Positions 35,303 through 64,000 are shown, counted from the first letter of the stretch. The stretch: DNA of 64,000 nt from a virus (IMGVR_UViG_3300022868_000017), one strand, 5' to 3'. Notes: generated by a model from the letters alone, not told the origin. Numbers and translations are program-made.

Positions 35303-35893
35303 ATGGGGTATAGCAATAGTATTGACCATTTTAGTAATAATATCTTTGGTGATGATACTATGATTAATACTCAATATCTCAAATTTCTAAAAGGAGGGAT
35401 ATTGGCTTATTTTATTATTTCTCTTATTACAGGTGTTTTATCAGGAGCTACAATTGCTGTTACAGATGGTGATTTTAAACCATTGGCTGAAAATACACTT
35501 GGATTATTATTAGCAAGTGATAATCAAGCATATCAATTAGAAAAAGATTGGGAAAGTGGGACGTTTGATACTGATAATGATTCATTTGACCAACTCATAA
35601 AAGATGCTGTGTTAAGAACTATACTTACTAATATAGTAATAACGTTTTTAGTTCTGTTCTCTCTCTTTAAAATTATTGAAAAATGGTTAGAGTGGAATCA
35701 ACCATTAGGTACAAAATTTACTTTATTAGCTATAATCATTGCATTAATCATATATGCAGTATTAGGTATTATTTATTATTTAATTTCATCAATAGGAGGA
35801 GGGTTAGAAGGTAAATTTTTAGATACTTTAGTGGCTGGAATACCGTTGAAGAGTTTGTTCTATGGTATCAAAGTATTAGCTACCACATTATAA
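35303..35893 (+). CDS. membrane protein (about 4 TM)
   Basis: Hydrophobic helices ILAYFIISLITGVLSGATIAV, ILTNIVITFLVLFSLF, FTLLAIIIALIIYAVLGIIYYLI. Confidence 0.45.
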   Translation: MGYSNSIDHFSNNIFGDDTMINTQYLKFLKGGILAYFIISLITGVLSGATIAVTDGDFKPLAENTLGLLLASDNQAYQLEKDWESGTFDTDNDSFDQLIKDAVLRTILTNIVITFLVLFSLFKIIEKWLEWNQPLGTKFTLLAIIIALIIYAVLGIIYYLISSIGGGLEGKFLDTLVAGIPLKSLFYGIKVLATTL

Positions 35894-35897
35894 TAAG

Positions 35898-36269
35898 ATG
35901 ACAGACCAGAAGATATTAATATCATTTGACCAGGAAGATTTTGATGAAAAACTTAAACACATTCATTATAGTATAGAAGCTTTAGCTTATTGTGTACTAG
36001 TATCATATGATTTTCTAAGAATATCAGGTAAAAGTAATGTTAATGATATTTTAGATGAATTAAGTGATGGTCATTTAGAACAAATGAGATACTTTTATGA
36101 TAATATCCACCATGATGTAGGTAAACAAGCTTATTTAGATAAGATAAGTGCTAGTATATATAGTATAGGAAGACATAAAATGTATCTATTAATTAATGAT
36201 TACATAAGACATACAGAAGATGAAGATGAAGATACTTCTTCTAATGGTGGTAAAAAATTATTTTTCTAG
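35898..36269 (+). CDS. hypothetical protein
   Basis: ORF track. Confidence 0.4.
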   Translation: MTDQKILISFDQEDFDEKLKHIHYSIEALAYCVLVSYDFLRISGKSNVNDILDELSDGHLEQMRYFYDNIHHDVGKQAYLDKISASIYSIGRHKMYLLINDYIRHTEDEDEDTSSNGGKKLFF

Positions 36270-36365
36270 TTACTATTTTTTTTTAGAATTACATTTAAGT
36301 ACTTTATAAATTTTATTAAATTAAAATAAACCACTATATGTGGTTTTCTGGAGGAAAAAATTAAA

Positions 36366-37334
36366 ATGGAAGGTAAAGGAACTTGGGCTATAGTTCTTCT
36401 TGTTTGTGCAGTACTTTTAGTTGGTGGTGGTATCTCTTTTGTTGGATATCAGATGAATCAACAATCGGTGGTTGGAGCTGACCCCGGAGAAGTTACTGAA
36501 GCAGCAGAAGCAACTGCAGCAGGATTAAAAGTAGGAGATGCGGCTACAACTAAATTTAGAGCATATGATAATGAAGATGCTTCTTTAAGTCAAGTGGCAG
36601 CTACTCTATATGTTGAAGAACATAGTGGAGAAGATTATGCTTTGATTGAAGATGCAACAGCTATGAGTGCTAGTGCAGCAACATCTGTTTCAACAACTGT
36701 AGGTTCAGAGTTAAAAGCATGTGCATTTGATTCAACTTACTACGGTGAGTGTGCAGTATTTACTGTTAGCAAAGAAACAATGCCTAAAAACTTAGAAGTA
36801 TATGCTATTGCAAGTAGTGTATTAGTTGAATGTTATGACGATGGTTCAAAATTAACAGATTGTAATTTAACTTTAGCAGCTGGTCAAACAGACGCTCTAG
36901 ATTATGTTAGAATTGAGTTAAACGAATCTGATGCAGCTTTTAACTTTAAAGGAATTGGTATTGATACTACTGCAAGTGGGAATATTACTAACATTGATGC
37001 AACTGGTTCAATTACCCCTAGTGGAAGTTTAAGTGTATCAACTGTACCAACTAGATTAAATCGTGGAGCTTACGATGTTGATTTCTATTGGACAGTAGCA
37101 GATGCTGTTATGCTTCATGAATGGGATGTTATCACAACTTCCTCAGTAAGTTTTGAAGCAGATTCAGGCAACGACCCATCTGAAACCGCAACTATGTACA
37201 TTGTTGATGAGAGTATGTTTAAGAGTGTAGTTAAATCAACACAAAACAGAATCTTATCTGGTGTGGAAACAGATGCTAGTAGTCCAGCTGATGTAGGTAT
37301 TACAGACCCAACTTTAACAATAAACCTTAACTAA
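36366..37334 (+). CDS. putative major structural/surface protein with N-terminal hydrophobic anchor
   Basis: Strong RBS GGAGGAAAAAATTAAAATG. N-terminus MEGKGTWAIVLLVCAVLLVGGGISFVGY. Ala/Thr/Ser/Val-rich body with GC-richer codons (gct/gca/act), suggesting high expression. Followed by a T15 terminator. Confidence 0.4.
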   Translation: MEGKGTWAIVLLVCAVLLVGGGISFVGYQMNQQSVVGADPGEVTEAAEATAAGLKVGDAATTKFRAYDNEDASLSQVAATLYVEEHSGEDYALIEDATAMSASAATSVSTTVGSELKACAFDSTYYGECAVFTVSKETMPKNLEVYAIASSVLVECYDDGSKLTDCNLTLAAGQTDALDYVRIELNESDAAFNFKGIGIDTTASGNITNIDATGSITPSGSLSVSTVPTRLNRGAYDVDFYWTVADAVMLHEWDVITTSSVSFEADSGNDPSETATMYIVDESMFKSVVKSTQNRILSGVETDASSPADVGITDPTLTINLN

Positions 37335-37341
37335 GGTTTAA

Positions 37342-37356
37342 TTTTTTTTTTTTTTT
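37342..37356 (+). terminator. oligo-T tract (15 T), archaeal-type intrinsic terminator
   Basis: taaggtttaa then T15, immediately 3' of 36366..37334. A second T6 follows at 37359-37364. Confidence 0.5.
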
Positions 37357-37420
37357 GATTTTTTCTAACTGAATTATATCATAAGTTTTCTTAATAAATA
37401 TTTATAAATGATAACTATTA

Positions 37421-38410
37421 ATGATATATATGGACCAAACAAATAGTAAAGGTGGTATTCTAACAATCATTATAATTGTTTTAATAATATTAATAGGTAC
37501 AGGTGGGGTATTATATTATTTCTATACAACAGGTGTTTTTGATTCTGAACCAACTGATACTATAGAATTGGTAGATTTATATATTAGACCATTGGAATTT
37601 GAATCAAATAAGAATATAACATTAAATTATAGATTATTTGAAGGTCAAAAAATTGAAAAATGTTTATCAGACAAACCTTTAGATTTATGGGAAGAAGATT
37701 TAGAAGAATTCTATACTCAATATCCAGAATATGTTGGGTATACATTTAATGATGAAGGTTGTTACATTCATAAGATAGTACCTCTTTTATCATCTGAAGG
37801 TTATTTATACCCTGGATTAAACAAATTTGAATTCAAAAAACAAACTATTTACTTTATGTACTACTTTAGTGATGATCATTATGTTAATAAACAAATGTGG
37901 CTAGGGGTACCTGACCCTCAATTTTTAACTCAAAATGGTACAGTTGTTCAAGAAAAAACTATTTATGATATTACTGCTCATAAACAATCAGAAGAGATAG
38001 GTATTAATTTTTGGGGAGATATAAAATCAAACTCAAAAAATAATATTAGATTGTATTTGAATTCTACAGAAGAATTAAGACATATGTATCTATGTTGGGA
38101 TTGGTCTTTTGGTATTGTTGATATAAATAGTGACCTACCTACTCATTATCTCCCAGAAAGAATTACTCAAGAAGTATTAGAATGTTATAAGACAGATTCA
38201 TCATTATCAGTTAATAATAATAAACAAGTTGAATTTGATTTTGAAGTTGAAACAGGTAACTTAATTGAATCAGATTTTATTAAAGTTTATGTAATTGATG
38301 AAGACCAATTCCAAGATAACAATGATATTTGGGAATGGGGTTTTGAAGATGATTTGGGGTCAAACATAGGTGCAACTGACTTTATCAAAATAAAATATTT
38401 AAATACTTAA
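37421..38410 (+). CDS. membrane-anchored protein (N-terminal TM), unknown function
   Basis: MIYMDQTNSKGGILTIIIIVLIILIGTGGVLYYFY, then a 300-aa soluble domain. Confidence 0.45.
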   Translation: MIYMDQTNSKGGILTIIIIVLIILIGTGGVLYYFYTTGVFDSEPTDTIELVDLYIRPLEFESNKNITLNYRLFEGQKIEKCLSDKPLDLWEEDLEEFYTQYPEYVGYTFNDEGCYIHKIVPLLSSEGYLYPGLNKFEFKKQTIYFMYYFSDDHYVNKQMWLGVPDPQFLTQNGTVVQEKTIYDITAHKQSEEIGINFWGDIKSNSKNNIRLYLNSTEELRHMYLCWDWSFGIVDINSDLPTHYLPERITQEVLECYKTDSSLSVNNNKQVEFDFEVETGNLIESDFIKVYVIDEDQFQDNNDIWEWGFEDDLGSNIGATDFIKIKYLNT

Positions 38411-38426
38411 AAAAAAAATAGTAACA

Positions 38427-39281
38427 ATGGGAGAAGATAGACCACTTTTTAAAACTGCACTGGTAATTATAATCAGTTTCTTTATGGCAGGTCTCATCCC
38501 GTTTTTTGGTTTGTTCTTGTTTGGTGGAGTAGAAAGTGAACTTCTAAAATCTACAATGTATTATGCTATTGGTGCTTTATCTTTATTAGCTTTATTAGCT
38601 ATGGGTATTATTAATAAGATGGTTAATGATGGTCAAATAAGTGAAGAAAAATGGGGATGGGTAAATGTTTTGATTTTTGAACCTGCATCAAGTATGTTTG
38701 CTGATACTCCTCTTGAAAAATATTTAACATTCTCTAATATAATGCATTTCTCAATCATTTTTGCTTTATCTATGGCATTAATAGGTACTTTAACTCAAAC
38801 ATTTTTCGTAGCCTTACCAGCTGCTGAATTTCAAATTACAGAAACAGGTCAATTAATATTAGCTACTGAACCAGCAGCTTCAACTGAAACATTATTAATG
38901 ACTGTTATCATGAGTCTTACTATAGGTATTATTGATTGGTTCATAAAAAGGAAAGGGTTGCCCACATTAACTAGAATAGTTTTTATGATAATAGGTTCAT
39001 TTATTAACATGGGTGTGTGGGTAGGTTTACATTTCGTTAGGTATGGTGTTCAAGAAACTAGTTTAATAGGTACAGGTTTGTTTGGATTTTTAGGAAGTTT
39101 AATATCATTTATGACAGGTTCTCCTCTTACATGGTATATCTGGCATTTTTTCAATAATCTTTTCTTAAAAGCTAAGAATATATTTGGAAGTGATACAGTA
39201 GTAATAGTTATGATTGTAATCATATTGGTATATACAGCTTATGTTGTAATGTCAAAGGTTGTCAAGTCTCTAAGAAAATGA
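38427..39281 (+). CDS. polytopic integral membrane protein (about 7 TM)
   Basis: Multiple long hydrophobic helices throughout. Confidence 0.5.
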   Translation: MGEDRPLFKTALVIIISFFMAGLIPFFGLFLFGGVESELLKSTMYYAIGALSLLALLAMGIINKMVNDGQISEEKWGWVNVLIFEPASSMFADTPLEKYLTFSNIMHFSIIFALSMALIGTLTQTFFVALPAAEFQITETGQLILATEPAASTETLLMTVIMSLTIGIIDWFIKRKGLPTLTRIVFMIIGSFINMGVWVGLHFVRYGVQETSLIGTGLFGFLGSLISFMTGSPLTWYIWHFFNNLFLKAKNIFGSDTVVIVMIVIILVYTAYVVMSKVVKSLRK

Positions 39282-39291: not shown

Positions 39292-42200
39292 ATGAAAAAT
39301 AAATATTTTATTTTGTTAGTAATGTTATTGTTAGTTGTTATATCATCATCTGTAATGAGTACTACTTATTGTAGTGGAGAATATGACGATGAAGATGGTG
39401 ATTGGGATATTACTACAGATATATCTTGTTCAGATGAAAATATTATTATACTAGGTAGTTTAAATGTAGGAGTTACTGGTGAAACACCGGTAACATCTTA
39501 TTCTCTATCTACTTCTCCTGTTTATGACATGACTAATAATGAAACAACAATTACTGCTGAAATTCCTATTATTAATAGTGATGTTACTGGTTTTACAAAT
39601 GATTGGCATCAAGATAATAATAATGACATTAAATTTGTAATAGATGAATCAGAAAATATTATTCAAATATATAGTGATTTTGAAAAGGTTGATTCATGGG
39701 TATATGGTATAGATTTAGATGGTTCTAGTGATTCTGGTTTAGATGGTATGGATTTGGCTTGGGGATATCTTGATGATGGTGACCTAGGTATAGATGATAT
39801 TGTTATTGGTTTTTATAATGAAAGTGCAGATGAAGGTGATGGAGATTGGCAATATGATATAACTGGAGATGATTCTGGTTCTATTACAATTGATTTAGAT
39901 GGTGGTTATGATTCTGGTTTAGAACAAAATTATACAGTTTATTATAATATATCTGGAACAGAATTGTCAATAATTGCAGACACAACTGGTAGTTGGAGTG
40001 ATAAATATAGTGGTGCTCTTGATTGGAATGCTGATAGTGATATTTTTCCTAGTACAACATTAAAGAATTCAGCTTATGTACCTTCTGTAGGTGGTAATTT
40101 GACATTAAGTAATATTGGTTTAAATTTTACAGGTGATATTGTTATAGGTGATATTGCTGAATTTGATGCTGATGATGTTGATTTTATTGTCATGGGTGCT
40201 GATAATGGATTAGTTATTGAATCTGATATGGGAGTAATAATTAATAATTCAAATTATCAAGCCAATGGGAGTCAATATAATTGGGCTCATATTACTGGAA
40301 ATGATGTAACTATTCAAAATACTTTTTTGGATGGTATAGGTTATAGTGGTGATGATGCTAATTATGAAGCAGATGGGGTTTATTTTTCAGGGGTTACTTC
40401 AGGATTGGTTAAAAATGCTTCAATAAATTCTAGTGGTGGTTATGGTTTAGTATTATATGATACATCTAATCTTATTATTGAAGAATCATCTGGAGAATCA
40501 TTTGATGTAAACATTGGTGATAGTTGTTATGATAATATTATCAGAAATAATGGTAATATACATTCAATAATATTTGATGGAGAAACCACATATCCTTACA
40601 ATAATCTAATTTATAATAATACTATTACTTATAGAATGGTCTTTTCAGAGTATGATAGTGAAGATGAAGAATATACTGCTGGTGAAGATAATATATTTTG
40701 GAATAATAATGTTTCAAATGCTTGGATTGAAGATGTATATCTAAGTGTATCAAATATATTTGTTTATAATAATACTTATGGGGAGATAAAGTGGGATTTA
40801 ACAAACATATCTCTGGACTCCGAGGATAGTAATAAATATATTAGTTTAGGTACTAATATTTATTTAGAAAATAATCTAGTGGGTGCCAACATTAATAGTT
40901 TTACAACAAATTTAAATGATACAGCTCAAATAAAATTCTTTGATTTAAGTTGGGCTAGAGATGTTCAATTATGTACTAATATTGGAGGTACCTTGTCTGA
41001 TTGTATTGTATGTGATGACACTAATAATTGTTCTTATTTAGATAATACTTTAACAGTTAATGTTACTCATTTTAGTAATTATTCAACTAATGGAACTATC
41101 AATGTTGTTCCTAATGTAACCTTAATTAGTCCACCTGATGCTCAAAGTAATACATCTAATTTATTACAACAAACATTTACTTGTAACTTTACAGATGATT
41201 ATAATATGACCAGTATGTCACTATATTTAACTAATAATCAAAATACTAGTTTTGCTTTAAATCAAACAAATACAACTATATCTGGAACATCAGGGAGTGT
41301 ATCTTGGGATGTATCTTTAAATTCAGGAAATTATACTTGGAATTGTTTGGGGTATGATGTTGATGGTGGTTTGGATTGGGCAGATACAAATAGAACTTTA
41401 GTTGTTGAACCAATACCTACTTATTGTGGTGGATTATATATATCAGGTGATTGGACAATTAATAGTTCAGTAAGTTGTTCAGATGAAACAATTCCAGTTA
41501 CTGGTAATTTATTGATTGATTATATAAGTAGTACTGCAGTCACTTCATTTACAACTGATAATGAAGGATATTATGATTTAAGTGGTAATTCTACTTCAAT
41601 TACAAATGCAATTCCAGATGAAGATAAAACAACACCTTCACAATACACAGATGACTGGGATAGTAACACACCAGACTTTTATATTGTTATGAATGAAAGT
41701 GAGCATAAAATTCAGATGTTTGCAGATATGATTTCCACTACAAATTATCTTTATTATGTTGATATAGATGATGATGAATCAAGTGGAGATGCTAATGGTA
41801 ATGACCTTCTTTTCGGATATTACTCTGGAGCAGGCGGATATATTATTGGTGGTTGGAATAGTACACTGGGAGATAACCAAATATTCACTTCTGGTCAAAC
41901 AATAGATACCAATATGGATGTGAATTTAGCAAATAATTTTACACTTTATTTTAATCAAACTGGAACTACTTGGGAAATAGTTATTGATGTTACTGGAGTA
42001 TGGGTAGATAAATCAATAACTTCTTTTGATTTATTAGGAAATTATTGGTACACTACTTTTACAAACTCTCCATCAGTAGAATATATTGGTAACTTAACTT
42101 TAGATAATGTTAATTTAAATGTTACTGGAAATATTACTATTGAAGCAAATGCTTATTTTAATGCAGATAATACTAATTTTACTATTTTAACTAATGATAA

Positions 42201-50363: not shown

Positions 50364-52032
50364 AAGGAATATATTATTAATAGGTGTAATTATCTTATTT
50401 ATAATAAGTATAGCTGGTATCATTTATTATACAGTACCACAACAAGGTATTTGGGATGGTATAGCTAGTAATTGTGACCATTTTGTTTCTGTATTAGATA
50501 AATCAGTTGCTCAAAGTAAATGTAATTCATATATTTCTAATGGTTATGATAGTTGTTCAGTTAAGACAGGTTATTCTGCTATGTATGATTATACAGCTTA
50601 TTTAGCTTGTGCTATTAAAAATGATGATAGTAGTAATAATTATGATGATACACCTGATGAAAGTAGTGATAGTGGAAATTGTAATCCTTCTTCTGGATAT
50701 GAACATTGTGTAGATGGTTATTCAACATATGGTTCAGCAACATCATCAGTAAAATTACAATTATCAGGATTATATGGTCAAAATAAGAATGGAAAATGGT
50801 ATGTAGCTGATGACTTTGAAATGAAATATAGTGGTGATTGTGACTATCTTTATCTTTATGATAATTATAGAAAATCTCAATGTGGAGAAAATGGATGTAA
50901 TGGATATATAACTAAATTAAGTAGTAGTGGTACAATTAGAATAGCTGATTATACACCTCTTCAACCAGCATTTGTATGTTGGGATAGAAAAGATAAAGGT
51001 GGCTATTGGTCTTGGGTTTATGTATGTTGGGAATGGGATAATGTATGGTATAAATCTGATTTCAAATGTAATAATGATGATGATTGTGGTAATAATCAAT
51101 ATTGTGGTACTATAGATACAGGTAGTGAATGTATGGAATTAGGATGTGGTCCTACTGAAGATGTTATTAATCATCAATGTACAAATGTAGAAATGCCTGA
51201 AATATGTCAAGAAGCTGGTATTACAAATATCTATACTTGTAAAGATTATATAATTGAATTTGCTGATATTTTAGCAAATGACTTACAAGGTAAGATAGAT
51301 ACTATTGCTCAACTTGATTTAGATTATCAAGAAAAGTTAGAAATGATTATTAATTTAAGTAATAGTATAGAACAACAAGATTATATGATAGCAGAATTTG
51401 AACTTACTATTACAGACCTTGCTCAAGAAATACAAGATTTAAATTGGACAGTTCAACAACAGATTGAATATATTAGATTATTTAATCTTACTATTGATGA
51501 ATATGCAGCAGATATCAATAGATTGACTGATAATCTAGCAATAAAAGCACAATTAGTAGCTGGATTAAAGGTGGAAAATGCAATTCAAGCTGAATTAGTA
51601 AAAAAAATAACTGAGTCTTTTGCTAATCAAGGTGCCATTTTAGCTCAATTAAATCTTACAGTTCAAGATGATGCTGAAATAATCCAACATATGACTGATA
51701 ATGCAGTAGAGCAAGGTCAAATAATAGCAGGTATGGAATTGAATTTAGATGAACAGATTGAAATTGTAACTGAAATGACTAAGATTACAGATAGACAATT
51801 AGAAATTATTGCTGAATTAACAGATAATCAAGTAATACAAAATCAATTAATTGATAAATTACAAGAAAAAACAGATATAGATGACGAAACCATTCAAGCA
51901 TTGAAAAAACAAGTTTTAGACAAACAACAGGAAACAAAAACCTATATAAAGGCATCTATTATTATATCAATCATCCTAATAACTATAATAGGTGGAATGG
52001 TTATTTATTGGTTCATAAAGAAGAAGAGGTGA
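50344..52032 (+). CDS. bitopic membrane protein: N-terminal TM, Cys-rich ectodomain, ~250-aa coiled coil, C-terminal TM
   Basis: N-terminal TM ILLIGVIILFIISIAGIIYY. About 24 Cys in res 40-300. Long heptad region IAQLDLDYQEKLEMIINL...QLIDKLQEKTDIDDETIQALKKQV. C-terminal TM IIISIILITIIGGMVIYWFIKKKR. Confidence 0.5.
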   Translation: MERLLSKRNILLIGVIILFIISIAGIIYYTVPQQGIWDGIASNCDHFVSVLDKSVAQSKCNSYISNGYDSCSVKTGYSAMYDYTAYLACAIKNDDSSNNYDDTPDESSDSGNCNPSSGYEHCVDGYSTYGSATSSVKLQLSGLYGQNKNGKWYVADDFEMKYSGDCDYLYLYDNYRKSQCGENGCNGYITKLSSSGTIRIADYTPLQPAFVCWDRKDKGGYWSWVYVCWEWDNVWYKSDFKCNNDDDCGNNQYCGTIDTGSECMELGCGPTEDVINHQCTNVEMPEICQEAGITNIYTCKDYIIEFADILANDLQGKIDTIAQLDLDYQEKLEMIINLSNSIEQQDYMIAEFELTITDLAQEIQDLNWTVQQQIEYIRLFNLTIDEYAADINRLTDNLAIKAQLVAGLKVENAIQAELVKKITESFANQGAILAQLNLTVQDDAEIIQHMTDNAVEQGQIIAGMELNLDEQIEIVTEMTKITDRQLEIIAELTDNQVIQNQLIDKLQEKTDIDDETIQALKKQVLDKQQETKTYIKASIIISIILITIIGGMVIYWFIKKKR

Positions 52033-55000: not shown

Positions 55001-58000
55001 TGGTGGAGATGTAAGTGGAACATATGATAATATTCAACTTGGTTTAAATGTAGTTGGTGATGGAGAAATTAATTATACACAAATTACTTTAAGTGATTTT
55101 AATAATGATATGGGTTTTTTAAATAGTAGTAATACTTCAGGTTGGGATACAAATGTAGCTGATGATTTTAGTGGTAGTTGGAATGATTTATCTAATATTC
55201 CAGCTGGTTTTAATGATGATATTGATAATGATACAACATATACAAATTTATCTGAGTTCAACAATGATGCAGGTTTTATTACTTCTTATACCGATACTAA
55301 TACTAATTGTTCTGTTGATGGTAGTTGTTCTCTAATAACCTATGATAGTGAACTAACTTATACAGTTGATACTAATACTAATTGTTCTATTGATAATAGT
55401 TGTGGTTTGATAACTTACGATAGTGAATTAACCTATACAGTAGATACTAATGAAACAACAAGAGTAAATGATTTATATGATAATACTTCTAATTGGAATG
55501 AAGCATATGGTTGGGGTGACCATAGTAGTGAAGGGTATATAACATCATATGTAAATACAAATTGTTCTGTTGACGATAGTTGCTCTTTAATAACCTATGA
55601 TAGTGAATTAAATTATACAATTGATACAAATGAAACAGATAGAGTAAACGATTTATATGATAATACTTCAAATTGGAATACTGCATATACTTGGGGAGAC
55701 CATTCTACTCAATCATATCTTAAGAATGGTTCTTCAGCTAATTTGACAACATTAGATGTAAATATTATAAATTTAGATGAAGGTCGTATAACGGGTAGTG
55801 TTCCTGAAGATGTTTACATTAGTTTAAATGAATCAATTACTCTTTCAACTAATGGTAATGACCATATATATATTGATGCAGGTAGTTCTGATATAAATAT
55901 TGAATCAGATATGAATATAAACCAAAATAATATTATAGGTGTTAATAACATTACAGCTAATAATTTTAATGGTAATATATCTTGTGATTATATTACAGGT
56001 GCATCTTCTAACTTATGTACAATCACAGATACAGATACAGATACAATTTGGACTATTAGTAATGAATATATTTATAATAATTCAGGTGTATTAACTATTA
56101 ATGAAACCAAATTGAATGCTACAATTACTTCAATATCTGGAGGTGGTTGTGTAAATTGTATTGAAACTAATGATACAGCTATTTTAGGTCCTAATACTCA
56201 AATTAAATCAGCAGGACCATTTACTCCAGTTATGTTTGGAATTACATCTCATAATACAGGTGGGGATTTTGGATGGCCAGAATTAATATTGAAAACAGAA
56301 GGTACAGATGATTGGGATGGTACAGGAGATACAGCTGATGGAACTATTTTAGGTCAAATATCTTTCTGGGGTAGGGGAGACCAAGCTGGTTCAGCAGCTG
56401 GGGCATATATGAGAGTAAGACAAGTTGATGATGCTGACACAGATTTACACACTAAATGGGAATTTCATACAAATTCTAAGGATTGGATTTATCATTATGA
56501 TGAAGAATTTGATATGGCTCTAGATGATAATGCTTTGTTTGTTAATAAAGGTATTCAATATTTAGGTCAATCATCTTCACCAGTTACTTGTAATACAACA
56601 TGGGAAGGTTATATGTACTATAATAGTGGGGATAGTAAATTTTATGGTTGTGCAAATGGTGTATGGTATGATATGGTTAGTAATGCAACTTCATCTGGTA
56701 ATTATGTATTGAAAAGTGGAGGTACTATTACTGGTGATTTAACTTTAGAACAAGACTTAACAGTAGAAGGTGATACAACACTTGATACTGTAACTATCAA
56801 TGATGCAATTGATGGTGGGGTTTTAGATATAGATTTGAGAGATACTATAGTGGGAGGTCTTGCTTCAGTAGGCAATACGGGTTATTATACCACTTGTGTT
56901 GGTGTAGGTTGTGCTATCTTTAATGACGGAAATTATAGTATTGGAATTGGTCCTGCTTCTTTAAATCAAAATGATGGGGATAATGTTATTGCTATTGGTT
57001 ATGAATCAGGTCAAAATAATAATGATGATAATGTTTTAATAATAAGAGATAGCACTTTAAATGCAGTTCCTATCATATGGGGGGAATTAGATAATAATTA
57101 TGTAGCTATTAATGGGTGGGACCCAAGAAGTGAGTTAGATGTTAATGGAATGATAACTACTACTGATATAAATATTACAAATAACATTTATCTAAATGAT
57201 GTTAATATTACCAATGTAAATAAATTAACAGCTAATGAATTAGTAGGTAATATAGATTGTTCAAATATTACAGGTACTACTTCTAATATCTGTACATTTG
57301 ACAGTAGTACATATCTTTTATCAGGTTCAAATATAATAGGAGATACTGAAATGAATTATACTGAGGTAACTTTGGCTGATTTCACTAATGATGCAGGATT
57401 TATTACTTCATCTGAATCAGATACTATCTGGAATATTACTGGAAGTGACTATATTATCAATGAATCTGGTATATTAGATATTAATAAAACCAAATTAAAT
57501 TCTACAATAGAATCAATATCATTAATTGATAATGATGATATTGGTGATAACGAAATGAATTATAGTGAAGTCACTTTATCAGATTTTACTAATGATGCCG
57601 GTTTTGCATCATCATTTGCATCAACATTTACAAATATAACTGTAACTAATATTATTTCTAGTGGAGGAGATATATCAATATTAAATTCATCAGGAGATGG
57701 GATAATTGCTAAATTTACTCATGGAGGTGACAATTTGGAAGTTACTGGTAAAGTTGAAGCTGATAGAGTAGAGATAGCTAGTACAGGTACTTTTGGAGGA
57801 TATGTAACTGCTGAAAAATTTGTTGGTGAAATGGATTGTTCAAATATTACTGGTTCTGATGGAAATTTGTGTACTATTGATGCAATATATATTGGTCAAG
57901 CTGAAGATTTTACAGGAGATATATATGGAAATTATAATGATGGTCTTCAATTAAATTTTACTAATATTACTTTATCCGATTTTACCAATGATGCTGGATT

Positions 58001-59654
58001 TGTCACAGTTGCTGGAAGTAGATGGAATATTACCGGGAGTAACTATATTTATAACACTACGGATGTTCTACATATCAATGAAACCAAATTAAATGATACT
58101 ATTGATGCTAGAGCAGGTTCAGGTATTGGGAATATTACAAATATTAATGCATTAGGATATGTATATGGTGGTGGTAGTTCAGGTGAAGTGAATATCACAT
58201 TTAATGCAAGTGGATATACTTCTGCATTAGCTACACTATTTATTAATCAAGCCGGAGAATTTACTGGTGATGTAACTGGAAGTTACTTAGGTGGTTTAGA
58301 ATTTAATGAAACTGCATTAAATGCATCAATTGATGCTAGGGGTGGCGGTGACATTACTTCAATAACAGCGTTAGGTTATGTTTACGGTGGTGGAGAATCA
58401 GGAGATGTTAATATCACATTTAATGAAAGTGGATTTCAAACTGCTTTAGGTTCATTATTTATAAACAAAGCAGAAGGGTTTACAGGAGAAGTAACTGGTA
58501 ATTATTTTGATGGTTTATTTATTAATTATTCAGTAGTTACCTTAAGTAATTTTACAAATGATGCTGGATTTATTAGTAATGAAGATGTAGTTATTGTTAA
58601 TGTTAATAATGATGGTAAAATTGGGTTAGGTATATTACCAGTTTATACTTTAGATATTAATTCTACTTATAATCAATTAAGAGTTGCAAATCCTACTGGT
58701 GGTGCGGTCATAGGTCTTCAATCTCCAAATGGAACAGCATCTATTAGATACGACCTAGATGGTGAAGAAATATTTTCTTTGTACAATAATAAAGTAAAAA
58801 TAAGTGATACAGGACAAGTTTCTATGGGTACAGACCATGATATAAATTACGATTTAGATATTCAATCACAAACATCTAGTGCTACATTTAGAATGGGCGA
58901 TAGTTTTAATACTGGTTTAACTTTTGATTTTAATCCAGGAACAGGGTCAACTATTAAAGATTGGAATAGTGAGGAAATTAATATTGTAATAAATAGTACA
59001 GATAGTCCAGGTATTAAAATATCTCCAGGTGGTATTTATATTGCTAATAATGTTGCTTCTTTAGCTGACCCAAATTATATGTTAAAAGTTGGTCAAAATG
59101 CAAGTATTGTTGGCTCAACATTTGATACCAATAAGGTTTATTTAGCAGAAAATACAATAGTTAATGGTTTATTAGGTGTCAATTTTTTAGAGGAAGAAGG
59201 ACAATATCCTATTGATATACATTTAGCTGGTGGTAGTATGGCAATTAGGACTACTGATTCAGCAATTATTGATGGAGACCCATTGGGGTATATTCATTTT
59301 AGAGGGGATGATAGTGGAACACACACAAACAAAGCTGGTGCAGTTATATATGCATTAGCTGATGGTGAATGGAATGGTACGGTTCAAAGAGATGCTCCAA
59401 CTAGATTACAATTCCATGTACAAGGTGATGGAGCAATAGATGACCTTACCGATTCAGCATTTACTTTAAAACATGATAGTGCAGTATTTGATGTTACTGA
59501 GGTAACTTCAACAGGTGGTATTACTGCAACTACATTTTTAAATATACCTGATGATTGTACATCTTTTTGTGAACCTGGAGACATAGGTTATAATACAACT
59601 CATATTTGTGTATGTACTGCAACAGATACATGGCAATCAGCTATACTAAGTTAG
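52008..59654 (+). CDS. giant (2548 aa) secreted repetitive fibre-like protein
   Basis: Signal/anchor at N-terminus. Repeated motifs HWDNITNKPTNLD(T/I)DSTDDITT (x3), (V/I)TL(S/N/A)(D/N)FTNDAGFI (x7), NCSVDGSC.LITYDSEL.YTVDT (x4), NETKLN.TI (x4). No C-terminal TM. TAG stop abuts the next ATG. Confidence 0.7.
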   Translation: MVHKEEEVRMLKKFIVPVFICIILMVSLVSATIIEPDKISTDNIYSHNSSSLVLQNQTIINDTLELLGNVDGSTINITGFKFFGQYNWNIDSESSSYLSFNGTSLSFNLSNLDDSHTLDWDNITSKPSDLDTDDTDDLITSTNFGGDVSGTYDNIIIADNSHLLHWDNVSNKPANLDIDSTDDITTSGGTITGNLIINGNLQLIGDWFNATVTNQYLNGTFYPSLSDTFDIGSSTTKWNYVYANYFVGSMDWSNLTNLPTNLDTDSTNDLITTTNFGGDVTGTYNNLQINNDSVNLHWDNITNKPTNLDTDSTDDITTTNIGNQNVNSSDYWDNYNTPSEISVSTLINDAGYITLANVTDTNTQKGSIGPYLYNDTSDIYFNDTKLNETIELLDDDTTYSNGTGINQSGTVFSIDLGYFQGLFIESGSNVIGDTEINYTEVTLNDFTNDAGFITSYTNTHWSINRTSLQNQSGILGVNETWLDGKYAQITDLFSESWNDLTDIPAGFSDNIDNDTTYTNLSEFNNDVGFITSYIDTNTNCSVDGSCENIVYESELNYTVDTDTTYSHLSNFTDNLGDRGYTHLSNFTDDLGYVDTNTHWEINETVLDNQSGTLGINSTYFNLIYINDDETTNWDKDSSDDLTTSTNLSNAHLHHWDNITNKPTNLDIDSTNDITTSNIGSQNVNSSTFWDNYDTPGDIGTSQLNNDANFIANGTSATLTDLFVDTNLIYATGDKIGFLTSSPSSEHDFDFNGNVRIQGNLDVLGNLTSLSVENLNINGSIIPEQDSSFTIGNTTHRYQYIYVSDDIYVNGLSVCLEDGTNCYMGTLINTTELEDGTIINADISDSAAIEEVKLNLNYGTTTLYNLIQSINYTHLSNFTDDLDYSTKNVNSSEYWDTYNNPSDIQNMLTIPCGNISGATSDLCTLQDTDTDTQKGSSGPYLYNDSTMMYFNESKLNNTIGLLDTDTTYTNGDGLVLTNNQFNISLSYFQNLFIELTDSFGGDVSGTYDNIQLGLNVVGDGEINYTQITLSDFNNDMGFLNSSNTSGWDTNVADDFSGSWNDLSNIPAGFNDDIDNDTTYTNLSEFNNDAGFITSYTDTNTNCSVDGSCSLITYDSELTYTVDTNTNCSIDNSCGLITYDSELTYTVDTNETTRVNDLYDNTSNWNEAYGWGDHSSEGYITSYVNTNCSVDDSCSLITYDSELNYTIDTNETDRVNDLYDNTSNWNTAYTWGDHSTQSYLKNGSSANLTTLDVNIINLDEGRITGSVPEDVYISLNESITLSTNGNDHIYIDAGSSDINIESDMNINQNNIIGVNNITANNFNGNISCDYITGASSNLCTITDTDTDTIWTISNEYIYNNSGVLTINETKLNATITSISGGGCVNCIETNDTAILGPNTQIKSAGPFTPVMFGITSHNTGGDFGWPELILKTEGTDDWDGTGDTADGTILGQISFWGRGDQAGSAAGAYMRVRQVDDADTDLHTKWEFHTNSKDWIYHYDEEFDMALDDNALFVNKGIQYLGQSSSPVTCNTTWEGYMYYNSGDSKFYGCANGVWYDMVSNATSSGNYVLKSGGTITGDLTLEQDLTVEGDTTLDTVTINDAIDGGVLDIDLRDTIVGGLASVGNTGYYTTCVGVGCAIFNDGNYSIGIGPASLNQNDGDNVIAIGYESGQNNNDDNVLIIRDSTLNAVPIIWGELDNNYVAINGWDPRSELDVNGMITTTDINITNNIYLNDVNITNVNKLTANELVGNIDCSNITGTTSNICTFDSSTYLLSGSNIIGDTEMNYTEVTLADFTNDAGFITSSESDTIWNITGSDYIINESGILDINKTKLNSTIESISLIDNDDIGDNEMNYSEVTLSDFTNDAGFASSFASTFTNITVTNIISSGGDISILNSSGDGIIAKFTHGGDNLEVTGKVEADRVEIASTGTFGGYVTAEKFVGEMDCSNITGSDGNLCTIDAIYIGQAEDFTGDIYGNYNDGLQLNFTNITLSDFTNDAGFVTVAGSRWNITGSNYIYNTTDVLHINETKLNDTIDARAGSGIGNITNINALGYVYGGGSSGEVNITFNASGYTSALATLFINQAGEFTGDVTGSYLGGLEFNETALNASIDARGGGDITSITALGYVYGGGESGDVNITFNESGFQTALGSLFINKAEGFTGEVTGNYFDGLFINYSVVTLSNFTNDAGFISNEDVVIVNVNNDGKIGLGILPVYTLDINSTYNQLRVANPTGGAVIGLQSPNGTASIRYDLDGEEIFSLYNNKVKISDTGQVSMGTDHDINYDLDIQSQTSSATFRMGDSFNTGLTFDFNPGTGSTIKDWNSEEINIVINSTDSPGIKISPGGIYIANNVASLADPNYMLKVGQNASIVGSTFDTNKVYLAENTIVNGLLGVNFLEEEGQYPIDIHLAGGSMAIRTTDSAIIDGDPLGYIHFRGDDSGTHTNKAGAVIYALADGEWNGTVQRDAPTRLQFHVQGDGAIDDLTDSAFTLKHDSAVFDVTEVTSTGGITATTFLNIPDDCTSFCEPGDIGYNTTHICVCTATDTWQSAILS
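55305..55710 (+). repeat. nucleotide-level tandem duplication inside CDS 52008..59654 (about 170-nt unit, about 80% identity, plus partial copies)
   Basis: 55380-55535 and 55536-55710 are near-copies (NCS(I/V)D.SC.LITYDSEL.YT(V/I)DTNET.RVNDLYDNTSNWN.AY.WGDHS). A partial copy lies at 55305-55380 and a diverged copy at about 53613-53700. Confidence 0.6.
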
Positions 59655-60074
59655 ATGAAAATGAAAAAATATATTCCACTATTGATATTCTTTTTATTAA
59701 TTAGTGGTGTATTAGGTTTATCATCTGACATGAGAGTTGGTTCTATTATGAAAGATTCAAACTATACTTATACAGTTAATACAAATTTTAGTCTTGACAC
59801 ATTAGAAGTTGATTATAATGAACTATATTTTAATACAATACCATATTGTGATAGTGTTTTCAGAAATTATATTACTTCAGATAGGTCTTGTCCTTCTCCA
59901 GCAGTATCACCTGGTGGTGGACAAAAACCTTGGTATGACCATATTAATGCAACAATTGAACCACCAGAAAGAGACTATGTAGATATCTTGTGGATTTTAA
60001 TAATATTGTTGGTAGTTGGGTTTATTATATATGGAGTAGTTATCTATAGTTTATGGAAAAGAGACCAAAGATAA
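59655..60074 (+). CDS. small type-I membrane protein (signal peptide plus C-terminal TM)
   Basis: IPLLIFFLLISGVLGLSS ... ILWILIILLVVGFIIYGVVIYSLWKRDQR. Confidence 0.45.
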   Translation: MKMKKYIPLLIFFLLISGVLGLSSDMRVGSIMKDSNYTYTVNTNFSLDTLEVDYNELYFNTIPYCDSVFRNYITSDRSCPSPAVSPGGGQKPWYDHINATIEPPERDYVDILWILIILLVVGFIIYGVVIYSLWKRDQR

Positions 60075-60152: not shown

Positions 60153-60539
60153 TTGAACTTTGACCAAACATTTACTAGAAACCCATTGGAAACACCTATT
60201 GAAAGATATTTTTACTTACCATCTAATTTACCATCTGGAGAGAATCAATTATATTGTAGAGCCATTTATAAGAACTTAGGTTTATACCATCAAGATTTTA
60301 GTGATACATTTATAGCTAATCCTCCTGGTGGACCAAATGGTAAGAATATAGAATTAACACCTGTAATGGAAGAGGTAGATGGAAATGAATCTATTAGTAT
60401 AGGTATTCAAGATATACCTGATACAGATAGGTTATCTACATTTACATGGGTTTGTATCATTATTACTATCGTAGTTTTATTGGGAATTATACTGATAATA
60501 TTAGATAGAAAGTATGGATTATGGAGTCAAAATAATTAA
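60153..60539 (+). CDS. small C-terminally anchored protein (TTG start per track)
   Basis: C-terminal TM FTWVCIIITIVVLLGIILIILDRKYGLW. PPGGP region resembles PGGGQKP of the preceding protein. Confidence 0.35.
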   Translation: MNFDQTFTRNPLETPIERYFYLPSNLPSGENQLYCRAIYKNLGLYHQDFSDTFIANPPGGPNGKNIELTPVMEEVDGNESISIGIQDIPDTDRLSTFTWVCIIITIVVLLGIILIILDRKYGLWSQNN

Positions 60540-60574
60540 AATATAAAAATAGAATTCAAATATATATAATTAAG

Positions 60575-60781
60575 ATGGGTATAGCAGATTTTTTCATAGG
60601 AGGATTAAAGTTTTACATACTTCTACTTCTAGGTAATATCCCATCAATCATAATCTTTGGTGTATTATCATTTCTAGGTATCTTACCTTTATGGTTAGGG
60701 GTAGCTTTAATACTTGTATTAATACCTGTTAATGTAATATCAGCTGGCTGGTTAGCTTATAAAATATTTGGGTGGGAATAA
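60575..60781 (+). CDS. small 2-TM membrane protein
   Basis: LKFYILLLLGNIPSIIIFGVLSFLGILPLWLGVALILVLIPV. Confidence 0.35.
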   Translation: MGIADFFIGGLKFYILLLLGNIPSIIIFGVLSFLGILPLWLGVALILVLIPVNVISAGWLAYKIFGWE

Positions 60782-62321
60782 AATGAATAAAATAATTATG
60801 TGGATAGGTGTCGTGATTCTTGCATTATCTTTATTAGGTGGAGGAGCTTATATATTAGTAGAACAGAGTGTATCTGGTGGATTTACTCCTATCTTTTGTA
60901 ACGATTATTCGTTTACTTGTTGTGTAGATAAAACTGATTCAAATCCAGTTAATCTAGATTCTAAAACATCATATCAATGTCCTGAAAATGCTAATTATTG
61001 TCTTATTACATCTACTAATAGTAATTTCATATGGGCTGGTAGTGAAGATTGTGAATTAGGATGGCATCCTAGTAAAGCTCTATTTGGTTCTACTTTTGCT
61101 TGTGATGATGAAAGAGTAATATCTGAAAATGAACAATTATTACCTAGTGAACATATCTATGGTTTTGCTACACTTGGAGTAGACCAAGTAACTGTAACTA
61201 TTGAAAAACATGTTAACGGTTTAATCTTTACAGGAAGATCAGGTTATGAATTAGGTGTACCAGTATTAGGAGCTGATGGTTGTACTTTTAATCCAACAGC
61301 TACTAGAAATGATGGTAAATTAGTTGAATATGATGTTGATAAGACTTCTTATACAATAAGTCCTTCAGACTGTATGTTATCATTTGTACCAGGTGATAGA
61401 CATATGTGTGGTACATTAGAAGAACAATGTAGTAATTATAATGATTGTTCAACTCATTCTTATGGTAATTATGAATGTATAGGTAGGACATTACAAGAAT
61501 ATGGTTGTAAACAAATAGCAAAACCATGGTTCTTAGAAGAATATGGTGGTAGTTTATCCTTTAAACCTTTTTCAGTAGTTGATGAAAAAGCTGAACTTAA
61601 TAAATTACCTTCAAATTCTAGATGTGAAATAATAACTGGTGAAACAGTTCAATGTTGTGGAGATACAGATTGTGGAAGTAATGCATTTTGTGATGTAGGA
61701 AAAACATGGACTTGTCAAGAATCAGCTGAATGTGATAGTGATAGTGATTGTGGAGTAAGTCAACAATGTGATAGAGATTCAAAAACAATTAAGAAACCTG
61801 TATGTAACTTACAATCAGGAAAATGTGAAAAAGAATCAATTAAAGATGTTGAATGTTGCAGTACAGAAGATTGTCCAGATAAGTACTTTTGTGGAATTGA
61901 TAATACATGTCAAGAATCAACTGTACCAAAAGTGGATTGTCCTTTCTCATGTTGTGTAGGGGAATTAAACTACTTTAATAAAGGTTGTGCAGATGGGACT
62001 TTTTGTGTAAACCATATATGTACAGATGATAAATGTACTAAAGATAGTGATTGTCAAAATGGTTATACTTGTGATGATGGTGATTGTGTAAAAGATGAAT
62101 TACCTGGTCAATGTAATTGGTATGAAGAATATTACGAAGAAGAAAGTTGTGGATTTTGGTGTAGTATAGGTGTAGGTGACCCAGTTACAGATACAGGTTG
62201 TAAATCAATGTTATGGCAATACGTATTAATAATAGGTGGAGTAATCATAGCTATTGTATTGATTATACAACCTAAAAAACCTGAATCATTACCAAGTTTA
62301 CCATTACCTAATAAAAAATAA
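60768..62321 (+). CDS. Cys-rich modular type-I membrane protein (517 aa)
   Basis: N-terminal signal anchor. More than 60 Cys in repeated C-x-D-x-D-C-G-x-x-x-x-C-D-like modules (DSDCGVSQQCD, TEDCPDKYFCGIDNTCQ, DSDCQNGYTCDDGDCV). C-terminal TM LWQYVLIIGGVIIAIVLII. Confidence 0.5.
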   Translation: MGGNKMNKIIMWIGVVILALSLLGGGAYILVEQSVSGGFTPIFCNDYSFTCCVDKTDSNPVNLDSKTSYQCPENANYCLITSTNSNFIWAGSEDCELGWHPSKALFGSTFACDDERVISENEQLLPSEHIYGFATLGVDQVTVTIEKHVNGLIFTGRSGYELGVPVLGADGCTFNPTATRNDGKLVEYDVDKTSYTISPSDCMLSFVPGDRHMCGTLEEQCSNYNDCSTHSYGNYECIGRTLQEYGCKQIAKPWFLEEYGGSLSFKPFSVVDEKAELNKLPSNSRCEIITGETVQCCGDTDCGSNAFCDVGKTWTCQESAECDSDSDCGVSQQCDRDSKTIKKPVCNLQSGKCEKESIKDVECCSTEDCPDKYFCGIDNTCQESTVPKVDCPFSCCVGELNYFNKGCADGTFCVNHICTDDKCTKDSDCQNGYTCDDGDCVKDELPGQCNWYEEYYEEESCGFWCSIGVGDPVTDTGCKSMLWQYVLIIGGVIIAIVLIIQPKKPESLPSLPLPNKK

Positions 62322-62594
62322 ATAATTTGGAGGGATGTACCATGAAAAAGAAAGGAAATAGCAAATTGAAAAAAGTAAGAATTCGTAGAAAAGATGGTGT
62401 TATGACTACTGTTTATAGGAAAAAAAAGTAGTCAACCAATTTTCCACCAAAAGAGATAGATGTCTTATATGTCAATACCCAAACCTAGAAAGTATAAAAA
62501 ATAAAATTTTTTATACCTAGATGTATAATGGTATTAAAAAATATACAAAGCAAGAGGTAAATCAAGATGAATTACAACACATGGGAAGAATTAA

Positions 62595-63317
62595 TTGAAG
62601 CAGAGTATCCAAATTACAATAATAAAGATGAATAAAATATACAAAATATTAATTGGTGTATCAATAGTATTGTTATTACTGCTAGGAGTATTATTTACTG
62701 TTAAAAGTATTCTGTCAATGGACATAGATGATATTCCTTTATTTATACCAAGTCAAAGTATTATAGATTCACCTAATGAAGAAGTAAGTTGTTCAAGTTA
62801 TGATATTCCTGATAAATTTAGAGAAACCTATGGGAATTCACAGATTAATTCATTAGAAGATAATTGTGAAATTGGTGGCGGTATTTGGAGAGAATTTAAT
62901 AATGAAATGGGATGTTATTGGAACCCAGATTCAGGTTCTACTTTTGATTGTAATGCTCAACCAATAATAGGCTTGGGTAACTATTGTGAAGATGATTTAC
63001 TTGCAAATTGGGAATGTAATCTTAATATTGCTTATGTAGGTTGCTTATGTAATAAAGCAAAACCTAGTACTTGGGTTGAAGAAGAGGAAGAGATACCAGA
63101 ACAAAGAATAGAAAAAATTCAAACTCAAGATAGAAACAGATTAAATCAACTAACTAATTTAGAATTTAGTTTTGATGAAACCAAAGTAATAGCTAATGGT
63201 CTAGAAGAAAAAAAGTTTTTAAATATGTTTAAAGTTCAAAGACAAGCAACATATGAAATCAACAACAATGGAGACATAATTAAAGTAAAAAGATTTTCAG
63301 ACTTTTTATTTAGATAA
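62595..63317 (+). CDS. membrane-anchored Cys-containing protein (true start possibly ATG at 62628)
   Basis: MNKIYKILIGVSIVLLLLLGVLFTV TM, then a Cys-rich region and a charged C-terminal half. Confidence 0.4.
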   Translation: MKQSIQITIIKMNKIYKILIGVSIVLLLLLGVLFTVKSILSMDIDDIPLFIPSQSIIDSPNEEVSCSSYDIPDKFRETYGNSQINSLEDNCEIGGGIWREFNNEMGCYWNPDSGSTFDCNAQPIIGLGNYCEDDLLANWECNLNIAYVGCLCNKAKPSTWVEEEEEIPEQRIEKIQTQDRNRLNQLTNLEFSFDETKVIANGLEEKKFLNMFKVQRQATYEINNNGDIIKVKRFSDFLFR

Positions 63318-63506
63318 TAAACAACGAGGTTAAAAAAAATGAATGAAAACTTGAAATTTAGGGATATGAAAACACAGACTAACTTTTATACTGATAAGTA
63401 TGAAATTAGAACCAAACCAGTTAAAGGTAATCCACGAAGATTTGCTATAGCTGATGCACCTAGTGGATGTAAAGCTTGGCGAGTGCTACCTAACATAAAA
63501 TAGAAA

Positions 63507-63764
63507 ATGCTAATATCAATATGGATTCCCATTATATTAACCGTAATTGCCATTTTCTGGTGGGTTAATCCTATTGATTTACCTGGGCCTTTTGATGAAA
63601 TAGTAGTAACATTAATAGCATTAGGTGCCTGGTTAGCCTTTACAGTTGAGAAATCAATTATCACATTCATAAATGATATTGCTACTGGTAATATATCATC
63701 AATAATCATAATCATAATAGTTATAGCAGTTATTATTGCTTATGTAAAGACAAAAAAGGATTGA
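63507..63764 (+). CDS. small membrane protein
   Basis: Three hydrophobic helices. Track ORF. Confidence 0.35.
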   Translation: MLISIWIPIILTVIAIFWWVNPIDLPGPFDEIVVTLIALGAWLAFTVEKSIITFINDIATGNISSIIIIIIVIAVIIAYVKTKKD

Positions 63765-63773
63765 GGTAACAAA

Positions 63774-64000
63774 ATGAAAAAAATATTTTTAATAGTTGTA
63801 ATATGTACTTTATTAATGAGTTTAGTATCTGTTAGTGCTCAAGATGATACCATTTTCAAGGATGAAAAAATCAGTTGGTTACAATCTATATTTGTAGAGG
63901 AATCTGTTTATGAAAGTCAGTTATCTGATAAAACCATATCTAATGGGGATTCATTAACAACAAAGATTTTTTATTATACAAAATATGATAATGTAATTGA
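63774..64000 (+). CDS. secreted protein, 5' partial at window end
   Basis: MKKIFLIVVICTLLMSLVSVSAQDD signal peptide. Runs off the window. Confidence 0.4.
   Translation, partial: MKKIFLIVVICTLLMSLVSVSAQDDTIFKDEKISWLQSIFVEESVYESQLSDKTISNGDSLTTKIFYYTKYDNVI

Follow-up and report, generated by a model that had tools for sequence, protein, structure and literature searches.

A membrane-protein gene block fills almost half of a 73-kb circular mobile element of possibly viral nature

The virus entry IMGVR_UViG_3300022868_000017 was analysed as a stretch of 64,000 nt (hereafter the window; GC content 28%), to which all open reading frame (ORF) coordinates refer and in which the genes lie in two divergent arms. 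From position 35,303 the plus-strand arm carries a block of membrane and secreted proteins, led by a P-loop ATPase and including a proposed structural protein of 322 amino acids (aa) and three giant proteins dense in N-x-S/T glycosylation sequons. Hydrophobic segments (Kyte-Doolittle, 19-aa window, threshold 1.6) occur in 17 of the 18 ORFs from 35303 to the window end, against 8 of the 45 upstream (Fisher p=1.6e-8), and the sole ORF of this part without one is 35898..36269. These counts bear out an earlier annotation made from the sequence alone (the sequence-only reading), which had claimed a signal peptide or transmembrane (TM) helix in nearly every ORF from 35.3 kb and whose ORF coordinates and lengths we could reproduce. 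Its observation of C-terminally anchored proteins with type I topology also holds: five window ORFs have both a C-terminal TM and a signal or anchor at the N-terminus (39292..43980, 43981..49953, 50344..52032, 59655..60074 and 60768..62321), and a sixth (60153..60539) has the C-terminal anchor alone. The block overruns the window edge. On the 73,030-bp circle described below it extends from 35,303 to ~70,121, or 48% of the genome; the remaining ~9 kb carries more membrane proteins, and 26 of the 28 ORFs of the whole block have hydrophobic segments (p=5.8e-11). Chance does not account for this membrane-rich block, which is a real feature carried by a mobile element.

Several samples yielded contigs of 66.9-74.6 kb that encode the exact 322-aa protein; these contigs have different break points and are >99.9% identical. 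Positions 14303-20420 of one contig (L010) are the reverse complement of positions 1-6118 of another (L012), with 100% identity over 6,118 bp, and joining contigs of two samples in this way closes a circle of 73,030 bp. The circle contains replication, DNA-modification and membrane-protein genes only and no cellular genes, and the 64-kb window holds no tRNA, rRNA or other Rfam family. A closed circle without cellular genes places the block on an autonomous mobile element rather than in a chromosomal adhesin island, in agreement with the mobile-element location that the sequence-only reading had considered. The population is near-clonal across samples, and we found no hypervariable receptor-binding region, in the giants or elsewhere, between them. 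Some population variants have a cassette of small ORFs of ~1.07 kb inserted at the strand-switch region (~28720..28739, compared with 1289..2354 of L001).

The giants carry 58, 77 and 107 sequons, or 3.7-4.2 per 100 aa compared with ~0.7 elsewhere, which is z=5.6-7.5 above composition-preserving shuffles. Three control registers in the same proteins give S/T-x-N 28/33/50, N-S/T 28/29/39 and N-x-x-S/T 29/35/48, so that the sequon count is ~2x that of any control. An abundance of N, S and T thus does not explain the enrichment, which is specific to the register of glycosylation, and the description of these proteins as sequon-saturated stands. Judged from their sequences, the giants are probably N-glycosylated. 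Giant 1 contains a tandemly duplicated module of ~600 aa, the halves of which are 38% identical (E 5e-89), and its homolog in the related contig L017 is a fragment-like protein of only 193 aa. The C-terminal region of giant 2 is homologous to that of giant 1; giant 2 also resembles, in part, a 752-aa protein of L015 and has weak matches to Ig-like domains, all below the Pfam cut-offs. Giant 3 has many internal repeats and starts at TTG 52008 (2548 aa) or, in public gene calls, at ATG 52035 (2539 aa). Tandem DNA repeats of 75 bp and 180 bp (82-85% matches) at 55293-55703 encode units of the form 'NCS(V/I)D(G/N)SC..ITYDSEL.YT.DTN' and are a likely site of length variation.

Giant 2 contains an internal HINT domain at residues 693-820, which passes the Pfam PT-HINT cut-off (E 1.7e-12, 48.2 bits vs 27.7) and matches the 'bacterial intein-like domain' 2lwy in the PDB (E 4.9e-8). 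The expected motifs are Cys693, TTNHP (TxxH, 755-759) and the terminal HN at 819-820, followed by Lys. A canonical splicing intein was rejected on account of this Lys, given that a Cys, Ser or Thr nucleophile is missing at the +1 position, and Lys there implies cleavage rather than splicing. Giant 2 is predicted to cut itself into an N-terminal piece of ~690 aa and a membrane-anchored C-terminal piece.

For ORF 36366..37334 the sequence-only reading had put forward a structural role, to be checked against capsid folds such as the jelly roll or HK97. Structure prediction shows no capsid fold: in the model, tandem Ig-like beta-sandwiches come after a membrane helix at the N-terminus, and the fold resembles cell-surface proteins, the S-layer anchor SlaB included. 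Its sole full-length structural match is A0A5Q2WAX2 from a viral structure library, an entry with no name in the structure-search tables and no mention in the literature. The protein has no family match in Pfam, PHROG or NCBIfam, and in INPHARED none of three divergent members of its family gave a tblastn match. A word-indexed search returned 9 homologs and an exhaustive profile search 306 clusters at 50% identity (233 at E<=1e-10), from groundwater, lake and other metagenomes, and none of the members carries a name. The 150 matches listed are mostly full-length (~305-394 aa; three shorter ones look partial), and no contig is longer than 75 kb among the 29 clusters examined. An N-terminal hydrophobic helix is present in 147 of 149 members and a C-terminal TM in 0 of 149. 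We rejected a type IV pilin reading of the 'KKG + hydrophobic helix' N-terminus, as only 11 of 149 members have a FlaFind-type class III signal motif ([KRDE][GA][ALIFQMVED][ILMVTAS]x3 before the hydrophobic helix). About a third of the members (47/149) have a QQ[ST]A-like motif right behind the helix that anchors the 322-aa protein and its 329-aa paralog.

The GC content of the 322-aa gene is raised to 37%, which comes from the amino-acid composition of its product (rich in Ala, Thr, Ser, Gly and Val) and not from codon choice. This composition and the GGAGG ribosome-binding site that precedes the gene suggest high expression. The protein is a candidate major structural or coat protein, but not one with a known capsid fold. 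Just upstream (36320..36365), a hairpin (AAACCAC-TATAT-GTGGTTT) precedes a T-rich run and the GGAGG; it may be a terminator or regulator that parts the gene from the upstream operon. The 329-aa protein encoded next is a distant paralog whose kinship lies in the C-terminal domain: hhalign aligns the two at 93.6% probability (E 2e-7), and BLASTP with the C-terminal motif gives E 0.03. A homolog search with the 329-aa sequence recovered nothing but the query; its orthologs, identified in the related loci, always adjoin the 322-aa gene.

The protein encoded at 33115..34893 is a bona fide FtsK/HerA-superfamily enzyme, as had been suggested from sequence. Its structural matches fall in that superfamily, the nearest being HerA and VirB4, with the viral packaging enzyme B204 among them. 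Walker A (GGSGSGKT) lies at residue 25 and Walker B (LIILEE) at 278; K31, E282 and E283 are invariant in 11 homologs, and the protein lacks a TM helix. Two narrower assignments failed. It is not HerA proper, since Walker A at residue 25 leaves no space for the N-terminal HAS barrel, and it falls short of VirB4/TrbE by score: these families gave its only NCBIfam matches, over the Walker A region only and with 16-24 bits against curated cut-offs of 643-1322 bits (TIGR00929, 23.8 bits vs 643). A terminase PHROG was matched partially at the P-loop (E 6.6e-6, 0 significant stretches). Three ATPase orthologs from other metagenomes (L017 6002..8689, P0014 and P0018) bear inteins, with Hint, LAGLIDADG or Intein_splicing matches; the copy in the window is intein-free.

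These genes belong to a syntenic core of seven genes, with an eighth, variable one (123-aa), in the order 175-aa, ATPase, 113-aa, 196-aa with three TM segments, 123-aa, 322-aa, 329-aa and 284-aa polytopic. The order recurs in relatives from other samples with GC contents of 25-39% (L015, L017, L019 and L022), representing at least four further lineages, and the contig name of one relative with the core indicates a 0.1-um groundwater fraction. The 175-aa protein has no match in Pfam, PHROG or NCBIfam, and its orthologs in L015, L017, L020 and L022 lie immediately upstream of the ATPase. By eye, the basic 113-aa protein (111 aa in the public call) could be winged-helix-like. In L022 the position of the 196-aa gene is taken by a 226-aa gene without detectable similarity. 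Residues E148, E154, W198, H202, H240 and N244 of the 284-aa protein are invariant in 5 orthologs. As a weak lead from sequence, it is possibly a CPBP/Rce1-like intramembrane protease: a single ortholog (L019) matches the Pfam Rce1-like family PF02517 (E 3e-4, 21.4 bits vs a cut-off of 22.4), and a profile search of PDB sequences returned no Rce1. Such an enzyme could process the N-terminal anchors of the 322-aa and 329-aa proteins. The giants have no more than fragmentary counterparts in the relatives and are variable cargo, as expected for receptor-binding proteins.

The other (left) arm looks viral. It encodes a PolB whose top matches in phage databases are haloarchaeal tailed viruses (~25% identity), ERCC4 and HNH nucleases, a Sak4-like annealing protein, a PcfJ-like protein, a primase-like gene, a serine recombinase, a Band-7 protein and a complete FolE-QueD-QueE-QueC-QueF set. 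This complete 7-deazaguanine pathway (13874..20316) predicts preQ-type hypermodification of the genomic DNA, and the neighbouring 249-aa gene is possibly a DpdA-like transglycosylase. The Band-7/SPFH (prohibitin-like) membrane-scaffold protein (10312..11139, minus strand) may be relevant to membrane remodelling in particle formation. The serine recombinase gene (30778..31656, minus strand) lies at the divergent junction beside the structural arm; the relative L019 (NCBI assembly GCA_041694085.1) has a tyrosine integrase instead (5899..6639), which suggests that some members integrate.

Terminase, portal and tail genes, none of which the sequence-only reading had seen, were also absent from Pfam and PHROGs searches of nearly all plus-arm ORFs and 20 left-arm ORFs. 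Of the Duplodnaviria hallmarks (HK97 capsid, large terminase, portal) the only trace was the partial P-loop match of the ATPase to the terminase PHROG, and the double or vertical single jelly-roll major capsid protein of Varidnaviria was not found. Homologs of the VP3-like, VP4-like and NTPase (nucleoside triphosphatase) proteins of Pleolipoviridae, which have genomes of 7-17 kb, did not appear among PHROG or INPHARED matches to this 73,030-bp element. No Pfam family for a relaxase, coupling protein, VirB6/TrbL, VirB8 or VirB2 matched the plus-arm ORFs or their orthologs at E<=0.1, or the ten left-arm ORFs scanned at E<=0.001. Small hydrophobic ORFs are present as candidates for the two-helix major capsid protein of spindle-shaped archaeal viruses (Fuselloviridae, Halspiviridae, Thaspiviridae; SSV1 VP1, His1 VP21). 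None of them has a PHROG match, and such short proteins diverge beyond the reach of hidden Markov models. IMG/VR and INPHARED gave no match to the block, and PLSDB none to the ATPase or the 322-aa protein. In the literature we found no described virus of DPANN archaea, Pacearchaeota or Ace Lake with this gene set.

Shine-Dalgarno-like sites precede many genes, which indicates a prokaryotic host and rules out a eukaryotic one. The host is probably a low-GC DPANN archaeon, a weak assignment drawn from the selection for sequons in the giants, the affinity of PolB to haloarchaeal viruses, the ERCC4 and HTH_45 domains and a 1.9-kb contig, carrying one ATPase relative, that is binned to a Candidatus Pacearchaeota genome. 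Scanning metagenomes for relatives gave six short contigs, with no cellular flanks. Three left-arm proteins on the minus strand have lipobox-like signals (927..1682, LFLIGC; 6575..7432, LLLGC after an RR motif; 15335..15751, LLLIGC), and the last of these ORFs has 6 sequons in 138 aa (z 4.3).

In our reading, to which we give even odds, a virus-like, self-replicating circle of double-stranded DNA of ~73 kb devotes this half of its genome to the envelope, to particle morphogenesis and to host recognition. We favour a virus-like element because an autonomous replicon combines a replication, recombination and hypermodification arm of viral type with a block led by an ATPase that has intein-bearing orthologs, and because a compositionally biased 322-aa protein of uniform length lies with its paralog beside this ATPase while the giants vary downstream. 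A coated, lipid-bounded particle is favoured since the analysis turned up no capsid fold and the chief candidate protein has a membrane anchor and S-layer-like domains. The conserved cassette would supply the machinery, namely the HerA/VirB4-like ATPase, a small DNA-binding-like protein, the 3-TM protein, the two beta-sandwich paralogs and the polytopic protein; here the folds of the ATPase and the 322-aa protein, the paralogy and the synteny are results given above, and the remaining steps of the mechanism we infer. The ATPase would pump the 7-deazaguanine-modified genome into the particle, and the beta-sandwich pair would coat or scaffold the membrane through its N-terminal helices, as an S-layer-type lattice rather than an icosahedral shell. 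The variable downstream genes (those of the three giants, as probably N-glycosylated adhesins or fibres, and of the type I proteins, one of them coiled-coil and several Cys-rich) would decorate the particle and mediate attachment and perhaps membrane fusion, with giant 2 probably cut by its internal HINT domain. More tentatively, and on balance doubtfully, the cassette might mark a widespread, unrecognised lineage of DPANN viruses with a membrane-tethered, S-layer-like coat outside the known capsid folds and with giant N-glycosylated adhesins, of which one would cleave itself by its HINT domain, a lineage that current pipelines would miss.

Several points weigh against a virus. Particle formation is so far a prediction from the gene content. 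No known capsid fold is present, and the best candidate has, in the predicted model, an Ig-like fold of cell-surface type with a membrane anchor. With no match in PHROGs, INPHARED or IMG/VR, the block has no homology tie to any virus at the level of sequence comparison. The host call, drawn from one 1.9-kb binned contig and indirect features, is weak, and the lipobox-type signals of the three left-arm proteins could also fit a bacterial host of the candidate phyla radiation (CPR).

The main rival, which we hold to be unlikely, is a plasmid-like element whose block forms a cell-envelope apparatus for DNA transfer or vesicle formation. A VirB4/HerA-type ATPase would drive DNA through a channel of polytopic and small hydrophobic proteins while adhesins join donor and recipient, in the manner of conjugation, the archaeal Ced/Ted systems or plasmid-loaded vesicles (pR1SE). 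Such an apparatus fits the structural neighbours and the only NCBIfam matches of the ATPase as well as the lack of a capsid fold; a VirB2-like part could be played by the small proteins with two TMs (60575..60781 and others) and a VirB6- or CedA-like part by the 284-aa protein, and in Gram-positive conjugation mating pairs typically form by way of giant anchored adhesins. The VirB4/TrbE scores, however, fall far under their cut-offs, the Pfam search returned none of the expected partner proteins and PLSDB is empty for the ATPase and the 322-aa protein. The element also has its own PolB, primase-like gene, recombination genes and DNA-hypermodification pathway, a set typical of lytic viruses and not of plasmids, and inteins, which the ATPase orthologs carry, are a typical trait of hallmark genes of viruses.

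Somewhat less probable still is a virus whose particle is built from the conserved core only, perhaps with a small hydrophobic capsid protein as in spindle viruses, and whose giants and Cys-rich proteins act on the surface of the infected cell, where they would alter the attachment of an episymbiotic DPANN host to its partner cell or block superinfection. Several proteins of 67-120 aa with 1-4 hydrophobic segments (60575..60781, 63507..63764 and the 86-, 120- and 67-aa proteins) are of the small hydrophobic type to which spindle-virus capsid proteins belong, and DPANN archaea depend on giant surface proteins for host attachment. The lack of conservation of the giants among relatives and an almost clonal population without a hypervariable receptor-binding region agree with this too. 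Yet the small hydrophobic proteins have no match in PHROGs, which includes archaeal spindle viruses, and no conservation in relatives was detected for them; to spend 18 kb of a 73-kb genome on non-virion proteins would also, we think, be unusual. That these are ordinary chromosomal S-layer or adhesin genes unlinked to replication genes, the case which the sequence-only reading had said would overturn it, is very improbable, since the SlaB-like fold of the 322-aa protein speaks for it but the circle closes from nearly identical contigs with different break points, housekeeping genes and (in the window) Rfam families are absent, and the 322-aa family never lies on a contig above 75 kb in the clusters examined.

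As a virus-like element, it can be set beside several known systems. In Varidnaviria with an FtsK/HerA ATPase (STIV/Turriviridae, Sphaerolipoviridae/Simuloviridae, PRD1-like viruses) structural modules work as we propose for the block, but the candidate major protein here is not a jelly roll, has an N-terminal TM anchor and shows no sequence match to their members; the ATPase, at 592 aa, is nearer HerA and VirB4, and the genome is far larger than that of most archaeal members, with half of it encoding envelope proteins. Pleolipoviridae (HRPV-1) enclose their genome in a capsid-less lipid vesicle with a glycosylated type I spike and internal membrane proteins, and have an NTPase in the core block. 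Going by its genes alone, the element would likewise form a vesicle with glycosylated spikes, yet it shares no PHROG or BLAST similarity with them, is 73 kb long, has its own PolB, anchors its major protein N-terminally rather than C-terminally and has giant adhesins. The plasmid pR1SE of Antarctic Halorubrum lacusprofundi spans tens of kb, its particle genes encode mostly TM or signal-peptide proteins and no capsid can be recognised; the element differs in its empty PLSDB searches and its virus-like replication and DNA-modification arm. From type IV secretion (conjugation, Ced/Ted) it is set apart by the VirB4/TrbE thresholds that its ATPase fails and by a relaxase, coupling protein and VirB2/6/8 that were not found. 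Giant 2 is like BIL (bacterial intein-like) and pretoxin-HINT proteins in its PT-HINT score, its match to 2lwy and its Cys1/TxxH/HN motifs, but the domain sits in an anchored surface protein of what is probably an archaeal virus-like element, and no downstream toxin domain was recognised.

To our knowledge, viruses of DPANN archaea are almost undescribed, and new viruses are detected through a small number of hallmark capsid folds. Here, a complete 73-kb replicon has a structural half that matches nothing in Pfam, PHROGs, IMG/VR, INPHARED or PLSDB and a core family of more than 300 clusters. If the cassette builds particles, it would represent a new architectural class of virion proteins and a new hallmark gene set for finding archaeal viruses, and it would provide an example of a prokaryotic virus bearing giant glycosylated adhesins that are processed by HINT. 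An apparatus for DNA transfer or surface remodelling would instead reveal a novel means by which mobile elements alter the surface of episymbiotic archaeal cells. In both cases proteomics and cryo-electron tomography have concrete targets in the 322-aa protein, the ATPase and the giants.

Table 1 Coordinates of the features discussed, in order along the element.
Feature	Coordinates	Strand	Basis or remark
249-aa gene beside 7-deazaguanine genes	13874..14623	-	matches PHROG 20335 only
QueF-like	15752..16234	-	7-deazaguanine pathway
QueC	16605..17309	-	7-deazaguanine pathway
GTP cyclohydrolase I	17819..18406	-	7-deazaguanine pathway
QueE, radical-SAM	18666..19349	-	7-deazaguanine pathway
QueD/PTPS	19786..20316	-	7-deazaguanine pathway
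Conserved 175-aa soluble protein, first gene of syntenic core	32418..32945	+	orthologs in L015, L017, L020, L022
FtsK/HerA-superfamily P-loop ATPase, 592 aa	33115..34893	+	Walker A/B, structure
Conserved 113-aa basic protein	34945..35286	+	orthologs in L017, L020
Conserved 196-aa membrane protein, 3 TM segments	35303..35893	+	TM scan; BLASTP orthologs in L015, L017
123-aa acidic soluble protein, poorly conserved	35898..36269	+	hydrophobicity scan, ortholog comparison
322-aa N-terminally anchored tandem beta-sandwich protein	36366..37334	+	structure model, profile search
329-aa N-terminally anchored distant paralog of the 322-aa protein	37421..38410	+	hhalign, BLASTP
Conserved 284-aa polytopic membrane protein, ~7 TM	38427..39281	+	orthologs 32-43% identity, four relatives
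Giant 1, 1562 aa: signal peptide, C-terminal TM anchor, 58 sequons	39292..43980	+	
Giant 2, 1990 aa: signal peptide, mosaic modules, internal HINT, two C-terminal TMs, 77 sequons	43981..49953	+	
BIL/PT-HINT autoprocessing domain in giant 2 (residues 693-820)	46057..46440	+	Pfam, PDB, motifs
123-aa N-terminally anchored Cys-rich (6.5%) protein	49992..50363	+	
562-aa type I membrane protein: Cys-rich head, stalk, C-terminal TM	50344..52032	+	
Giant 3, 2548 aa: signal peptide, no C-terminal TM, repetitive fibre-like, 107 sequons	52008..59654	+	
139-aa type I membrane protein	59655..60074	+	
128-aa protein, C-terminal TM only	60153..60539	+	
68-aa very hydrophobic protein, two TM segments	60575..60781	+	no PHROG match
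517-aa (512 aa from ATG 60783) Cys-rich (8.5%) type I membrane protein, no sequons	60768..62321	+	
240-aa (229 aa from ATG) N-terminally anchored Cys-containing protein	62595..63317	+	
85-aa protein, 3 TM segments	63507..63764	+	
425-aa type I Cys-rich membrane protein	63774..64000	+	start only inside window
86-, 120-, 266- and 67-aa membrane proteins		+	beyond window
59-aa membrane, 167-aa soluble and 203-, 213- and 483-aa membrane proteins	to ~70,121	-	beyond window, converging

Among the remaining genes of the block (Table 1), the type I protein at 50344..52032 has a stalk of ~230 aa rich in Q, E, L and I, which from its sequence is probably coiled-coil-like and has a weak match to SMC coiled coils (E 0.008). 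The minus-strand trio of 483-, 213- and 203-aa proteins is conserved in L020. The 517-aa Cys-rich protein has a 494-aa homolog in L026 (GC 44%), with 29% identity over 430 aa (E 2e-36), which sits near the 322-aa-family gene of that contig.

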